Below are positions 57,044 to 64,000 of a DNA stretch of 64,000 nt, one piece after another. The DNA comes from a phage. A program made the position numbers and the translations under genes. The notes beneath the pieces were generated by a model, which did no database searches, was not told the DNA's origin, and saw nothing but the letters and a program-made list of their open reading frames with translations. Numbering within the stretch: the stretch's first letter is position 1; each line of letters starts with the position of its first letter. The stretch is taken from the sequence record PV730299.1; one strand, 5' to 3'.

Positions 57044-58708
57044 TCAGATTTGTGAGGCCAGTTCTGTCACCAGAGGAGCGGCACGAACACGCGCATCTTC
57101 CAGTGTTTGAGTATTGAAGAACTCGCCATCACGATACACCAGCTGGTGCTGGTTGTCGGCGTCTTGCACCTGATCAAAGGTGATACCGTCAACCAACACT
57201 AGTTTACCCTGAGAGTCTTTAATGACTTTAAGGAAACCACGCGCAGACTTTTTAGTCCCGCCTTTATCGGTCTTCGGCTCTTTGAAGATCTCACGGAATT
57301 CGCCGTTCACTTTACCAGCCGTGGCTTTCACCGCCGTGCCAGTACTGTCACGGGTGTTCATCTGGTAGGTGTAGGAACCGATACCGAACACCACGTTGAT
57401 GGAAGCGAAGTTCCGGTCAGCCAGACGGCTAAAGATCTGGTCTTCACGCGACAGGGTGATAGAATCACCGTAGATCAGGCCGATGTGCTCATCCAACAGG
57501 AAGTGCCCAGTTTCAGTCTGGGTGCCACCAAAGATCTCCCACAGGCGCTGGATAGAGCCGACCGCTTCTGAACGGCTGATGATATTACGGTCATCTGCCA
57601 TCAGAGAGTTGATCGTGCCTTCGCCTGTAATCAGGTGGTAGGTGTTCGTCTCTTCGATGTGAATAACTTCTGTGTCGCTAGACACACCGCTAATGTTCAG
57701 CGTGGCACGGTCTTTGAACCCCTCGATGCGGTAGCCGCCAACAATGTGTACAGGGTCGCCCGAGTCGGGGCGGATCACGACTTTACCATTGCGCGCCATG
57801 ATAATGTCTTTCAGGCGAGGGAGATAGTCGTCGATGACCTGCCAGTAATCCCATGCATCAGACACGATGCTGACGGTGCCATCAGGATACACGTCCTGCA
57901 CCAGGCGGCGGAAGGTTTCGAATTCGCCATCCTTCGTGCCCATACACATCACGGCGTGTTCGGTAGCCGCAACAGAACCAGCAACGACATAATCTTCGTC
58001 GATGTCTGCGCCATAATACTCTTCTACGAAGTCTAGGGCAGGGTTGGTATCGGTGCCTTTGAAGAACACCAGATGACCGGAACCGGAAGACGCCGCGTCA
58101 TGCCACCCGCTCATACCACGGAAGGAGAAGTCGTGGCCTTGGTAGTCGATGAACCAATGGTCCGGCGACACGCCTGTAGCGAGGGCAGCTTTCACCATCA
58201 GTGCCTTGTAATGCAGAGCTATGGTGGCGTTCGTCATCGGCTTCCATATCTCAGAGCTGAACACGGTCTCCAGATAGTTGGTCAGCCAGTAGAACTCCGG
58301 CAGGGTATTGAACATCACATACACCGGAACGCCATACGGGCACATGGTGCCTTCAGGCAGCGCACGGACTTCGATAGGAAGGTAGCCGAGGTCATGCAGG
58401 GCTTCAATATGCTCTGTGCCGACGCGGCCTGGACCCAGGACTTTGTTCATGCGACGGGCATACTTCTTCAGCACCTTGGCCTTCGGGCACTGGAAGAATG
58501 CTTCGTCAAACAGTTCGTGGAACCAGGTCATGAAGCCCTGGATGCCCCAGACCACCACTCCGTTCTTCGGCAGGTGAGAGTTGAACAGTTTGTTAGAGCG
58601 CGGAGTTCCGTTGGAGAACACCAGCTCACTGCCTTCAGGGAACTGATAGATGTGCCCCGATTTGTAGAAGTCGATTGCATGGATTGGGTCTAAGTGGCGC
58701 ATGCTCAT
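57044..58708 (-). CDS. nicotinamide phosphoribosyltransferase-family protein (NadV/Namat-like)
   Basis: 554 aa; NAMPT-family pattern along full length; ATGA overlap with Prs-family gene; terminator downstream. Confidence 0.8.
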   Translation of the reverse strand: MSMRHLDPIHAIDFYKSGHIYQFPEGSELVFSNGTPRSNKLFNSHLPKNGVVVWGIQGFMTWFHELFDEAFFQCPKAKVLKKYARRMNKVLGPGRVGTEHIEALHDLGYLPIEVRALPEGTMCPYGVPVYVMFNTLPEFYWLTNYLETVFSSEIWKPMTNATIALHYKALMVKAALATGVSPDHWFIDYQGHDFSFRGMSGWHDAASSGSGHLVFFKGTDTNPALDFVEEYYGADIDEDYVVAGSVAATEHAVMCMGTKDGEFETFRRLVQDVYPDGTVSIVSDAWDYWQVIDDYLPRLKDIIMARNGKVVIRPDSGDPVHIVGGYRIEGFKDRATLNISGVSSDTEVIHIEETNTYHLITGEGTINSLMADDRNIISRSEAVGSIQRLWEIFGGTQTETGHFLLDEHIGLIYGDSITLSREDQIFSRLADRNFASINVVFGIGSYTYQMNTRDSTGTAVKATAGKVNGEFREIFKEPKTDKGGTKKSARGFLKVIKDSQGKLVLVDGITFDQVQDADNQHQLVYRDGEFFNTQTLEDARVRAAPLVTELASQI

Positions 58709-59559
58709 TTTACACGTCCTGTATTTTCAGTTTTGAAAGGAAGCCCGTCGGCGGTGATGTTCTCCCACCAGACAGTGTCGGCATACACAGCATCATAGAT
58801 CCCGTCGAAAACAGAGAGACCTTTGCTGAAGATGCCATGGGTAACGAAGAGTGTCATGTGCTTAGGCTTGTGCTTCTGAAGCTCTTTGCCTAACTCAACG
58901 AAAGTGCGCCCGCCGTCGCAGATATCATCAACCACAACCAGATAGCGGTCTTTGATCAGTTCAGGGTTCGTAATACTCACCCCAATGATCTCACCAGTCT
59001 TGGTGTCACGGTTCTTGTGACCGTAGACAATAGGAACACCGTCCAACGACAGGCTGAGGGCTTCGGTCTTCTTAGCCGCGCCGCCGTCAGGGGCCACCAA
59101 CACAGCGTTGTTCCCACGGATGAACCAACCCAGATACTGACGCACGATGTAATCTTGCGGGACAACATGGACGTTGTTGATCAGAGAAGACACAACATGG
59201 CTGTGAGGATCTTTGATCGCCACGCGGTCAAAGTTCATGCTATTGATGAACTCAGCCGCCCACTTCACAGACAGAGGCTCACCGAAGTCACAATGGCGGT
59301 CCTGGCGAGCATACGGGAAATAAGGGATATACGCATGGAATGTCGTCAGACGGTCCACGTTACCCAGACCACGAACGGCGTTTACCAGAAGCGCCAGCTC
59401 AATGAAGTCAGCCGATGATTTGATGTGAGCATCAATCACCACGTTCTGAACGTGGCCGATAGGGATACCAGACTTTTGAATCTTGATATGTTCCTCACCA
59501 CCTGGGAAGGTGAAGTGTTTGTAGAACACATCTTGGTCGTTCAATTTCAAACGAAACAT
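58705..59559 (-). CDS. ribose-phosphate pyrophosphokinase-family protein (Prs/Adps-like)
   Basis: 284 aa; phosphoribosyl-binding block VVVDDICDGGRTF and N-terminal Prs-like domain; GAGG RBS. Confidence 0.8.
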   Translation of the reverse strand: MFRLKLNDQDVFYKHFTFPGGEEHIKIQKSGIPIGHVQNVVIDAHIKSSADFIELALLVNAVRGLGNVDRLTTFHAYIPYFPYARQDRHCDFGEPLSVKWAAEFINSMNFDRVAIKDPHSHVVSSLINNVHVVPQDYIVRQYLGWFIRGNNAVLVAPDGGAAKKTEALSLSLDGVPIVYGHKNRDTKTGEIIGVSITNPELIKDRYLVVVDDICDGGRTFVELGKELQKHKPKHMTLFVTHGIFSKGLSVFDGIYDAVYADTVWWENITADGLPFKTENTGRVK

Positions 59560-59908: not shown

Positions 59909-60214
59909 TCACTTAAACGAGTCAACGATGGATGTAAGAATTTCGGGGGTGGGTTTGGCGTCTTGTGGTTCACGGAAACCCACCTTTGCGATGCGACCCA
60001 AGACATTGTACACTTCGCGCGGAAGGGTGTCTACGACCGTGTCCGACATGAACGCCACGTCTTCTTGGATGGCGTTGTATTCGGCCAGTTTAGCCAGTTC
60101 TGATTCTACCAGGGACTTCAGCTTTTGCAATGGGTCGTTGCAATAGTTGAGACGGTTGCAGTTGGTGAGCGCCTGGGTTAGATTCTCAAACGCTTCTTGT
60201 ATTTCCTTTGACAT
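59909..60214 (-). CDS. hypothetical protein
   Basis: ORF-track start is TTG; internal ATG (MSKEIQ) used. Confidence 0.35.
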   Translation of the reverse strand: MSKEIQEAFENLTQALTNCNRLNYCNDPLQKLKSLVESELAKLAEYNAIQEDVAFMSDTVVDTLPREVYNVLGRIAKVGFREPQDAKPTPEILTSIVDSFK

Positions 60215-60301
60215 TGATATGTGCCTCGTATTGTTGACAGACAACAACTACTTTACGGCACATGTCGATATCGAACAAGCCAATATGACACTCACGCTTC
60301 T

Positions 60302-60595
60302 TTATCCCCAGCTTATGCGCCAGCCAACTGTAAGCGTCGCTCCTGCTCCTCTCTCCGTTTTCCATAATGGGTCAAACGATCTATGGGCTTTTTGCTTCTC
60401 GGCACGGAGAGCGGCATTCGCCATCCTTCCCAGAGGCTGTCTGCCGTCGCCATGGGCATGGCAACCGACACGGGCATCACACGGGGTGCATATCCAGAAC
60501 TTCAGATTGCGGAGGTCAGGGCGATGAGGGTAGAGAACATCACCACCGACGAATTCGGCTGGGAGGCCACAGTAATCACATATAACATGTTTCAT
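60302..60595 (-). CDS. DUF3268-like zinc-ribbon protein
   Basis: Start at MKHVICDYCG; CxxC...CxxC with PLG and FDPLWK blocks typical of this phage zinc-ribbon family. Confidence 0.55.
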   Translation of the reverse strand: MKHVICDYCGLPAEFVGGDVLYPHRPDLRNLKFWICTPCDARVGCHAHGDGRQPLGRMANAALRAEKQKAHRSFDPLWKTERGAGATLTVGWRISWG

Positions 60596-60655
60596 ATTCT
60601 TTGTCCAAAAGAAACCCCGCACATGGCGGGGTTGCTCAGGCTGAGGTCAGACAGA

Positions 60656-61027
60656 TTATTTCAGGAGTGCTTCCAGTTCTTCAACAGATTTGCTTTCCAG
60701 CTCTTGCTGTTTCTTACGCTGGATCAGCTCCAGGATAATCTGGTTGTTCGCCTTACGCTCTGCCGCTTCTCTGCTGTCGTCACGTTCTTTCAGCTTAACG
60801 CCGATGATGTGCTTGACAACGTCGAAGCGCAGCTGCAGTTCGGAGTCAACGTTGCTTTTGGTGCCAATGAAATCTTCTTCATCGGTTTCTGCTGCTTTCA
60901 CCTGACGGCTCAGACCTTTCGCCATTTCGTTCAGGGCAGTCAGGCTCAGGTCCCAGACCTGCTCAACAGACAGCAGACCTTTGTTAGACTCGAAGCGCAG
61001 TTTCATACGGGTTGCTTTATCAAACAT
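60656..61027 (-). CDS. hypothetical protein
   Basis: 123-aa charged, helical-looking ORF. Confidence 0.4.
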   Translation of the reverse strand: MFDKATRMKLRFESNKGLLSVEQVWDLSLTALNEMAKGLSRQVKAAETDEEDFIGTKSNVDSELQLRFDVVKHIIGVKLKERDDSREAAERKANNQIILELIQRKKQQELESKSVEELEALLK

Positions 61028-61071: not shown

Positions 61072-63090
61072 TTAGAACACAACTTTCACAGTGCGGTTGA
61101 ACGAACCGCTCACCTTCACGAACACGTGGTTACGTTGGGTGGTAGAGAAGCCCAGACCGGACAGCTGCTCAGTGCTTGGCTGTACTTTAATCTTACCACC
61201 TAACATTTCAAAAACCTTGCGGTGTTTATCAAGTTCCGGCTTCAGATATTCGTTATAGAAACCACGGGTGCCGACAGGGTTAGCACAACCTTCCAGGATG
61301 AAGAACACGTGCTTGTTGCCCGTCTGCTCGCCGTCCCAATGGTTTGGTGAGTTCAGAACCAGCTGTACCTTCTGGAAGACGGAGGTCTTGATGCCCCAGA
61401 TTTCCTGAGAGCGAGCGTCGTCTTTCAGGGTAGAACTGATGTCAACCACCTGACCAGCGCGAACCTGAACCACAACAGCCAACGTGCGATCTTTGTTACC
61501 CAAGCCAGGGTGTGAGAAGCGCTTAGTCTGACCTTTGTATTCAACTTCGATTTCGAAACCAACGTCACAGGTTTCACGCTTGTTGAAGTTGGTGACATAG
61601 AACTCATAATTCCCGTCGCGCAGCTTGCTTTCATCGCTAAAGAAGATGTTCTCCACCGGACGGCGGTTTGGATCAATGCCGTCCATACCGTTCATGTCGA
61701 TGTCCAGAGTTGCGCCAGTTGACGAACGACGGTTGCGAAAATATACGTGGTTGTGAAGAGGATCGTTCATGCTCAGATCCAGGTCGTCGTTGTTATGCCA
61801 AGCCAGTGACACACGGAGGAAACTGTCGACATTACCACCTGCGGTCTTCACGCGCTCTTTGATGGAGTCGGCCACTTCGCCATTGTACGACCAGCTGAAG
61901 CCGTTGTTCCACTTGAACAGGTTAGGAGCGCCTGCGGTGGCCGGAGCGATCAGGGACATCAGGTTGCCAATGTGAGAGTTTTCGACCAGCACTTCCAGGG
62001 AATGCGCCTTTGGCAACACGTTTGTCAGGAAGTCGTCGATCGTGATCTCTTCAACCTTGTCCAGGGACTTGGTCGGAGTCTTCACTTCAGACGCCAGCTG
62101 AGCAAACGGGTCCATCTTCTTCTGAGCTGCCAGATCGGCGAACAGAACGTTGTTGATGGTCAGATCGTCATACACGGCATAACGGCGACCCAGTGAATCA
62201 GTCAGACCCAGCGCTTCGACTTCTTTCTGCGCGTTTTCAATCATCGACTTCGTGACCAGCGCGGTTGGGCGCTTGTAGTTCGTCGGAGCGACTTTGGCTT
62301 CAAAGGACTTCACGGCGGTTTCCAGATCCCGGCCTTCATTGAGGTCTACCAGCAGAGAGCCAATCACGGTATTACGAATGCCGTGAGGGGTATGACCGTT
62401 TGCACGGTAGCCAGTGCGCCAAGCCCACAGAGCGCGTTTCTCTTCTGCAGTTTGTTCGTACATGGTCTTGTTCACCACGAACGCCTGCACTGCCGCTTTG
62501 TGCTCTTCACCGCGATACAGAGAATTCTGGTCAATCAATTCCAGAACGATTTCAGCCGATTCCAGAGACAGTTCACGCAGGCCGCGCTCAAACACTTCAA
62601 TCGCCTGGCGGATTTCACCCTTCTTAGAAGCGATGGTATCTGCCCGCAGAACATAGCTGCCCAGCAGGTCGGTGTGGAAGTGGTTGTAGGTGCGGACAAT
62701 ACCATCTTTCATTTCGTGATTCGACTCAACACCAACTTTCTTGGTGTCGTTGAAGTACACGTCGACGATTGCGTGCTGCTTAACATACGCTGACAGCGCC
62801 GCAGCGACAACGTCGTATTCGTTACCCAGCTGAATGTTATCCCAGATAGAGATCACGTTCAGGTCGGCGTCGATGGTGACCACACCGCCGATGTTACGGA
62901 TGAATTGTTTACAGCAGGTGCAGTCGTGCTCGGTACGCTCACGGTAGAGCGGGTTGGTACCAGCAGGAAAAGAAGACAGATACAGATCCCACAGAGCATC
63001 TTTATCGATGTTGGTCATGAACAGACCAGTTGCTGACATGGCTAGCACGTTGTTGTTAACAGCTACTGCGAAGGGCTTAAATTCTGACAT
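61072..63090 (-). CDS. large hypothetical protein with N-terminal Cys motif
   Basis: 672 aa; HDCTCC motif near N-terminus; AGGAAGACTACACC-ATG initiation motif; no family recognised. Confidence 0.55.
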   Translation of the reverse strand: MSEFKPFAVAVNNNVLAMSATGLFMTNIDKDALWDLYLSSFPAGTNPLYRERTEHDCTCCKQFIRNIGGVVTIDADLNVISIWDNIQLGNEYDVVAAALSAYVKQHAIVDVYFNDTKKVGVESNHEMKDGIVRTYNHFHTDLLGSYVLRADTIASKKGEIRQAIEVFERGLRELSLESAEIVLELIDQNSLYRGEEHKAAVQAFVVNKTMYEQTAEEKRALWAWRTGYRANGHTPHGIRNTVIGSLLVDLNEGRDLETAVKSFEAKVAPTNYKRPTALVTKSMIENAQKEVEALGLTDSLGRRYAVYDDLTINNVLFADLAAQKKMDPFAQLASEVKTPTKSLDKVEEITIDDFLTNVLPKAHSLEVLVENSHIGNLMSLIAPATAGAPNLFKWNNGFSWSYNGEVADSIKERVKTAGGNVDSFLRVSLAWHNNDDLDLSMNDPLHNHVYFRNRRSSTGATLDIDMNGMDGIDPNRRPVENIFFSDESKLRDGNYEFYVTNFNKRETCDVGFEIEVEYKGQTKRFSHPGLGNKDRTLAVVVQVRAGQVVDISSTLKDDARSQEIWGIKTSVFQKVQLVLNSPNHWDGEQTGNKHVFFILEGCANPVGTRGFYNEYLKPELDKHRKVFEMLGGKIKVQPSTEQLSGLGFSTTQRNHVFVKVSGSFNRTVKVVF

Positions 63091-63209
63091 GGTGTAGTCT
63101 TCCTGTTTCAGTTCAAATGTGCGCCCCGTTTGCCAGGGCGCTTCGTTTAAGTGAGGTCAATAATACGTTGAAAAGAGTTATTGAAGAACGAAGTAAAGGG
63201 AATCTTTAT

Positions 63210-63434
63210 TCAGACGATCTTACCGCCGTCACAAGGCCGAGTATCACCGGAGTTGTATGCCAACATCCCCTGCATCAACAAACGTCTTGGCCCAGAAACT
63301 GATTTCTGTTTCCTCAACGTACTACAAAACCGAGTAGTGCCTGGGTAAGGAGTGTACACGAGACGTCCTTCCATACGGGCTTTCAGAAGAAACTCATCAG
63401 TCGCTTTACGCAGTTTGAACAATTTCCAGCTCAT
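63210..63434 (-). CDS. hypothetical basic protein
   Basis: 74-aa ORF directly downstream of the NUMOD3-containing ORF. Confidence 0.3.
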   Translation of the reverse strand: MSWKLFKLRKATDEFLLKARMEGRLVYTPYPGTTRFCSTLRKQKSVSGPRRLLMQGMLAYNSGDTRPCDGGKIV

Positions 63435-64000
63435 TTCTCACCCTTGTATCTTTTTAACCATTTGACGCATTTTAATGGTTCCCACCCTTTATTGAAACGT
63501 TCGATTATCCCACTGGTGGCATTAAACGCCTTCAGATCTTTTGTTCCGTACACATGCATGAGGGCTTCTGAACGTTTCATCGTTTTCAGGGCTTCAAGGA
63601 ATTGATCAGCTTTCTCCCAATATACGTCATTGTCGGGGTTCCATTTACCCTTCTCCCAAGGCATCTTAGCCAACATGCCTTTCTGAGCGTTTTCTTTCTG
63701 TTTGGCGCGTTGCTCTGGTGTGAATGAGTTGGTTAAGTCCTTCCCATAATTGGGATTGAGTTCCCCCAGTTTAGCTTTCCTGGCACATTCAGAAAATTGT
63801 TCTAAATCCATGTTGGCGCGGCGTTTCTCTAAAACCCGCCTTTTATATTCAGGATCAGAAGCCATCCTTTCATGGATTTTCATCAATCCTTTGGTAATTT
63901 TCTTGACTTGCTCTGGGGTTCTCTTATACCCATATTGGGGATTATTCTTTCCTCTTCTCCCATACATTGGGTTGTCTTTACCCACAAACCGAGAAACCCC
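63431..64000 (-). mobile_element. homing endonuclease-like gene, C-terminal NUMOD3 DNA-binding region (N-terminus beyond window edge)
   Basis: Tandem NUMOD3-like motifs (GKDNPMYGRRGKNNPQYGYKRTPEQ) typical of GIY-YIG/HNH homing endonuclease DNA-binding domains; reading frame continues to window end; catalytic domain not visible. Confidence 0.45.

Follow-up and report, generated by a model that had tools for sequence, protein, structure and literature searches.

The gene and its surroundings in the window

The gene studied here lies on the minus strand of the window, the whole 64-kb stretch of phage DNA that was analysed, and encodes a protein of 672 amino acids. The features of the region are as follows.

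63431-63985, minus strand: homing-endonuclease fragment with NUMOD3 only, matching positions 137-283 of 343 in PHROG 655
63210-63434, minus strand: 74-aa open reading frame, PHROG 19743
63091..63104, minus strand: Shine-Dalgarno site (AGGA) and spacer before the ATG, AGGAAGACTACACC
61072..63090, minus strand: DUF8224 / PHROG 1735 large protein, 672 aa
62911..62928, minus strand: HDCTCC string of the large protein, aa 55-60
60656..61027, minus strand: small partner gene, 123 aa, PHROG 2018, found beside nearly all full-length homologues
60613..60633, minus strand: terminator-like hairpin with a T-run directly after the partner gene (pattern match from a consensus scan only)
60302-60622, minus strand: DUF3268 zinc-finger protein, PHROG 1934
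59909-60247, minus strand: 112-aa open reading frame between the DUF3268 and Prs-like genes, PHROG 9847
58705-59559, minus strand: Prs-like gene, 284 aa
57044-58708, minus strand: Nampt-like gene, 554 aa, NCBIfam PRK09198 (470 bits), overlapping the Prs-like gene by 4 nt

The open reading frame at 61072-63090 is a real gene, as the preliminary description held, since deposited phages carry 99% identical proteins and the whole protein aligns to PHROG 1735 (E = 0, 1020 bits, residues 1-672 on profile positions 1-673). In this region, identity amounts to 98.5% with Escherichia phage LHE287 and to 93-98% with other Ackermannviridae phages. Annotations of the gene there nearly always read 'hypothetical protein', and in three records 'DNA-directed RNA polymerase'. 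The protein is predicted to be soluble, with a pI of 5.9 and five cysteines in total, and no transmembrane segments were found in it. The 14-mer AGGAAGACTACACC, which abuts its ATG, had been regarded as a conserved initiation context. This does not hold, as the exact sequence occurs solely at the 672-aa gene and allowing up to three mismatches adds a single further site in the 64-kb window; being exact only here, it represents an ordinary ribosome-binding context rather than a repeated motif.

Judged by its sequence, the 672-aa protein is a typical member of DUF8224 (PF26675) / PHROG 1735, a catalogued but uncharacterised family. Membership of PF26675 is taken from the precomputed labels of homologues, which are present on those 96-99% identical and on all 240 listed relatives; the Pfam copy that I searched does not include a DUF8224 model, and the large protein has no match in this copy (E ≤ 0.01 and E ≤ 10), in NCBIfam or in PADLOC. 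Searches of the PDB sequences with the single sequence and with three profiles returned only a chance match to BacB and a weak match to a RING knuckle. DUF8224, PF26675 and the PHROG identifiers are mentioned nowhere in the literature searched, within which the family appears to stand far from anything characterised.

A conserved core with an optional insert

The large protein can be divided into the following parts, all on the minus strand.

62656..63090, minus strand: N-terminal alpha/beta sub-domain, aa 1-145, with invariant R52, C57, C60, W83 and H137
62191..62655, minus strand: six-helix sub-domain and conserved loop, aa 146-300, with invariant W224, Y272 and R274 (APxNYKRPTA motif)
61885..62190, minus strand: aa 301-402, with invariant R302 and R303, a disordered linker (327-345) and then strands, as seen in the models
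61399..61884, minus strand: inserted TerD-like beta-sandwich, aa ~403-564, with the acidic motifs NxDDLD, LDxDxN and VEN
61072..61398, minus strand: C-terminal alpha/beta domain, aa 565-672, pI 9.7, with invariant E614, L616 and E628 in the alignment with Xp12-type proteins

These boundaries can be recognised by comparison with a second subfamily. The Xp12-type proteins of about 540 aa, found in Xanthomonas and Stenotrophomonas phages, in PaBG, in jumbo phages and in a Burkholderia prophage, share with the 672-aa protein the Pfam label and the CxxC, His, YxR and RR invariants, but are devoid of the TerD-like insert of ~160 aa; divergent homologues from jumbo phages show the same insert-less architecture. 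As the Xp12-type homologue aligns solely to aa 24-400 (27% identity) and aa 565-668 (25% identity), the sandwich is inserted in a core that is otherwise conserved. The structure models are consistent with this, as residues 313-400 lose confidence when the N-terminal part is modelled alone and are ordered in the full-length model, in which the strands after the linker appear packed with the C-terminal domain. The core consists of the N-terminal alpha/beta sub-domain (with C57-x-x-C60 and H137), the six-helix sub-domain and the C-terminal alpha/beta domain, and the insert is located in the last of these. No convincing solved-structure relative of the core was found among PDB sequences and PDB folds, and the N-terminal sub-domain (aa 1-145) has no PDB fold match.

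The compact cysteine cluster reported earlier is indeed present at aa 55-60, but it is not conserved as such. In the alignment of 31 full-length homologues only C57 and C60 of the HDCTCC string are invariant, while some of the homologues have T, A or S at the position of C59, and position 55 holds either H or Y; in the ~540-aa subfamily, the equivalents of the invariant pair are C81 (conserved in more than 90%) and C84 (invariant). In the structure model the pair is situated at the N-terminus of helix 58-67, preceded by a loop with pLDDT below 50. The alignment of both subfamilies leaves twenty invariant residues (Y37, R52, C57, C60, W83, G120, H137, W224, Y272, R274, L300, R302, R303, F329, F354, P360, W394, E614, L616 and E628), of which R52, C57, C60, H137, Y272, R274, R302, R303, E614 and E628 form the polar set. 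Compared with zinc fingers and RING domains, which have four conserved Zn ligands in a recognised spacing, only three invariant candidate ligands are seen here (C57, C60 and H137), and the profile of both subfamilies gives one weak match (E 0.0035), to the UHRF2 RING finger at its first CxxC knuckle. A Cys2-His(+1) metal site is plausible from the alignments and the model, although folding or contacts between proteins could equally account for the invariance of these residues.

With respect to the insert, the PDB fold comparison shows the TerD beta-sandwich fold (PDB 2kxt, 2qz7), and the resemblance to TerD is at the level of the fold only. The TerD profile (PF02342) gives no match to the 672-aa protein even at E ≤ 10, and comparison of the insert with authentic TerD sequences yields an hhalign probability of 0.2% and a Smith-Waterman score equal to the shuffled mean. 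TerD proteins bind Ca2+ through the conserved acidic loops GDN(R/L)TG(E/A)GDGDDE and DLD. This exact motif is absent from the insert, whereas the analogous invariant motifs NxDDLD, LDxDxN and VEN appear in the same order as the TerD loops. By the character of these motifs the insert is a candidate Ca2+-binding domain, while the sequence comparisons with TerD gave no signal.

The presence of the insert coincides with that of the small partner gene. The partner has an N-terminal motif F-x-x-A-x-R-x-K-x-R-F...G...E-x-LW-x-L-x-L (conserved residues F2, A5, R7, K9, R11, G17, E22, L24, W25, L27, L29 and L32), followed by a charged, probably helical tail, and it matches nothing in Pfam, NCBIfam, PADLOC or the PDB. 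It is 34-43% identical to the product of the gene directly downstream of the homologue in CBA120, Caulobacter phage Ccr5, Bacillus phage BCU4 and Alteromonas phage AD45-P1, and was present in 82 of the first 85 loci, the exceptions being two contigs that end at the gene and the insert-less Xp12 protein. In larger sets it adjoins the gene in 78 of 80 genomic and 79 of 80 viral full-length homologues, and in none of 80 insert-less viral loci. DUF8224 and its partner of ~125 aa form a self-contained two-gene cassette, in which the partner occurs only where the insert is present, a rule of which I found no description in the literature searched. The terminator-like hairpin after the partner gene may close this two-gene unit. 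In a mirror-tree analysis, the partial correlation of the partner with the insert given the core is 0.31 and that with the core given the insert is 0.56; the divergence of the partner thus tracks the core at least as well as the insert, so that the link between insert and partner rests on presence and absence.

Distribution, dispensability and neighbours

At a cut-off of E ≤ 1e-3, an exhaustive profile search returns 8,995 clusters, defined at 50% identity, and 2,289 of these reach E ≤ 1e-30; the best 150 are all ~660-760 aa long, and unusually long members show no extra Pfam domains or domain fusions. With tblastn, homologues at 30-50% identity are observed in 556 phage records, and in 460 of these the homologue is full length. 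These include Ackermannviridae, ~145-kb phages of Klebsiella, Serratia, Erwinia and Cronobacter, phiCbK-like phages of Caulobacter, Bastille-like phages of Bacillus, and phages of Alteromonas, Vibrio, Microcystis and Cellulophaga; members also occur in Vequintavirinae-like, marine and cyanobacterial phages. Cellular genomes give 149 matches over 185,579 species, against at least 600 viral matches. The distribution, which had been proposed as a check, shows that the cassette is enriched in phages, especially large virulent ones, and is also present in some bacterial chromosomes. Among the best 80 of the 149 cellular matches, about half are in Micromonosporaceae chromosomes. Within this family the cassette is present in approximately 45 species, belonging to Actinoplanes, Micromonospora, Salinispora, Dactylosporangium and Plantactinospora; their proteins are 39-41% identical to that of the phage, and the chromosomal context is apparently ordinary, which suggests an old capture with vertical inheritance since then.

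A natural deletion is found in Dickeya phage LIMEstone1, where DUF8224 aa 1-267, broken up into three small open reading frames, is joined to Nampt aa 446-554 (locus L250, 4501-5881). Lost with the deletion are the remainder of DUF8224, its partner and the DUF3268 and Prs-like genes, ~5 kb and six genes of the window in total, and the remnants are annotated as separate small open reading frames and 'nadV'. Similar partial DUF8224 matches occur in other Dickeya phages. The cassette is therefore not required for lytic growth in the LIMEstone1 lineage. Together with the searches of Pfam, NCBIfam, PADLOC and PDB sequences and folds, in which confident homology to a core replication or structural protein was looked for and none was found, this partly bears out the earlier suggestion of an accessory rather than a core function. 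However, 'accessory' understates both the spread and the constraint of a family with 8,995 clusters and 45-50% identity across phages of unrelated hosts.

The reasoning from position by which the preliminary description had arrived at this suggestion is not supported. In an all-against-all clustering of the neighbours in three sets of 80 loci, no third conserved gene is observed; no neighbour is shared by more than 15 loci, those shared are lineage-specific, and in these 240 loci nothing recurs except the small partner. Likewise, a pooled Pfam scan of the 150 nearest neighbours from 51 non-redundant viral loci returns assorted replication and recombination genes, among which no family appears more than twice. 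The proximity to the Prs-like and Nampt-like genes, which match the published NARP1 (Adps and Namat) in families and gene order, is not conserved, as CBA120 retains DUF8224 and the partner without a NARP1 match. DUF8224 as a member of the NARP1 pathway is rejected, given the absence of homology, the independent occurrence in CBA120 and the fact that this NAD+ reconstitution pathway is defined as a two-gene operon, complete without a third gene. The endonuclease-like segment on the other side is an insertion specific to the phage studied, as colinearity with its closest relative, LHE287, ends at 63213. At this junction LIMEstone1 carries F-LimVI, an intact homing endonuclease, which points to a recurrent insertion site upstream of DUF8224.

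Several other neighbours were considered and rejected as general partners. A DUF3268 gene is near DUF8224 in 15 of 80 viral full-length loci, and in a Burkholderia ambifaria prophage (locus L087, 7641-8093) a gene of this family immediately follows an insert-less DUF8224 gene, but the association is confined to Ackermannviridae, one other viral locus and this one Burkholderia prophage. In CBA120 (locus L001, 7295-8904), which has no nucleotide match upstream of window position 60140, orf156 is a 5-hmdU DNA kinase of the thymidine-hypermodification pathway (PF18723, E 1.6e-83), located two genes upstream of the DUF8224 gene, and orf154 has weak zinc-ribbon matches (E ~3e-3, below the Pfam cut-offs). 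Both are just upstream of DUF8224 in Ackermannviridae, to which the kinase link is restricted; in the window the kinase would fall past position 64000. In Alteromonas phage AD45-P1 (locus L004, 3340-5966), a DUF2201 metallopeptidase-like/VWA protein and a MoxR-type AAA ATPase are located directly upstream in the same orientation, and in Bacillus phage BCU4 an AAA ATPase is found just downstream of the partner. With VWA in 2 of the 150 pooled neighbours, the MoxR/VWA link observed in these two phages is rejected as a general one, though it may be a lineage-specific functional link.

Possible function and likeness to known systems

The reading that I tentatively prefer, at somewhat less than even chances, is that DUF8224 is a soluble and metal-dependent protein, either an enzyme or a ligand binder, whose substrate is shared by many hosts, and that insert and partner make up a Ca2+-responsive add-on. 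The core would be the metal-dependent enzyme or ligand-binding module, probably with Zn held by the Cys2-His residues, and the invariant Arg, Tyr, His and Glu residues would form the binding site for a small molecule, nucleotide or nucleic acid present in very different hosts. Such a universal substrate fits better than a host-specific protein target with the 40-50% identity observed among phages of Proteobacteria, Firmicutes and Cyanobacteria and the bacterial copies. The three acidic motifs of the TerD-like insert would hold Ca2+ or a different divalent cation, and the insert, together with the partner, could be a regulatory or oligomerising add-on without which the ~540-aa subfamily manages; direct contact between partner and insert is unproven. 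In the phage studied, the cassette would then provide an auxiliary early or middle function, unneeded for basic lytic growth. A role outside the virion is indicated by the Salinispora copy, which has ordinary chromosomal neighbours (LD-carboxypeptidase, RmlD, an SDR and sigma factors, for example), and by the location of the phage copies within replication and recombination gene blocks. Sequence and fold searches with the large protein revealed neither a catalytic motif nor a cofactor site nor an enzyme fold.

Alternatively, the protein may be associated with nucleic acids as a factor in phage replication, recombination or transcription, binding or processing DNA or RNA by means of the zinc knuckle, the conserved Arg/Tyr-rich loop and the basic C-terminal domain. 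I consider this rather unlikely, as the acidic pI of 5.9 and the lack of any nucleic-acid-binding fold in the searches weigh slightly against it. Less likely still is a Ter-like stress or conflict module, in which the TerD-like domain would be a sensor of Ca2+ or of a signal resembling a nucleotide, and the cassette would serve counter-defence, superinfection exclusion or host takeover. Apart from the fold of the insert, what speaks for it is that the cassette is phage-enriched (by the counts given above), mobile, self-contained and dispensable, that in the phage studied it occupies a variable block beside a NARP1-type counter-defence operon, and that Ter components including stand-alone TerD are known in phages, with a role in inter-phage competition proposed (PMC7824862). 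However, neither the large protein nor the partner has a PADLOC match, the ~540-aa subfamily works without the TerD-like domain, and transmembrane segments are missing. The conservation is moreover far above that typical for conflict proteins, and the chromosomal context across many Micromonosporaceae species is ordinary. Nor are other Ter partners found nearby: around DUF8224, in 240 loci, none of TerB, TerC, TelA, TerF/vWA and the PRTase biosynthetic genes is recurrent.

That DUF8224 is a virion, scaffold or assembly protein seems highly improbable to me. Its size, multiple domains and beta-sandwich, the coiled-coil-like tail of the partner and the name 'putative membrane protein' given to a homologue in one GenBank record would be compatible with it, but the gene is located among early and replication genes and not among morphogenesis genes, chromosomal contexts other than prophages exist, and the matches to capsid and tail folds amount to generic Ig-like noise. 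In LIMEstone1, where the gene is deleted, the neighbouring ORF108 is marked as a confirmed structural protein and no DUF8224 fragment is so marked. The phage DNA-directed RNA polymerase of the GenBank records of ChubbyThor, Gloob and Se-B has only these annotations in its favour and is effectively refuted, as no polymerase family or fold turned up in any sequence or structure search.

Returning to the preferred metal-dependent enzyme or ligand binder, a bolder version of it, which I regard as doubtful though worth stating, is that DUF8224 and its partner are a new system: a Zn-dependent enzyme or ligand sponge with an unseen core fold, switched by Ca2+ via the insert and an obligate adaptor. 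Its target would then be a metabolite, signal or nucleic acid conserved universally among hosts, and the system would belong to the same class as the metabolite-centred host-takeover and counter-defence functions of the NARP1 type, with new chemistry. If the core is a new enzyme or signal-binding fold, a widespread auxiliary function would be added to phage biology, and with it the first TerD-type domain to serve as an insert-plus-adaptor regulatory module. DUF8224, with ~9,000 clusters at 50% identity, is among the larger uncharacterised families of big virulent phages. What was an anonymous open reading frame now has a two-gene unit, domain boundaries, invariant residues, an optional insert tied to the partner and a natural deletion, which makes experiments to find its function straightforward to design. 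Of relevance for therapeutic Ackermannviridae phages, the libraries searched contain no known toxin or defence protein to which the gene shows a resemblance.

Among known structures, the core domain of Pneumovirus M2-1 (PDB 5nkx, 4cs7) is similar with a weak score and 8-9% identity, and is taken as a fold resemblance only. TerD itself is known as a tellurite-resistance, Ca2+-binding beta-sandwich, whereas here the predicted fold is inserted inside a larger protein. With NARP1 the cassette has no homology, and the two occur independently of each other, as in CBA120 and at other loci; nevertheless, both are phage-enriched, dispensable two-gene units, located in one and the same variable block of the genome.
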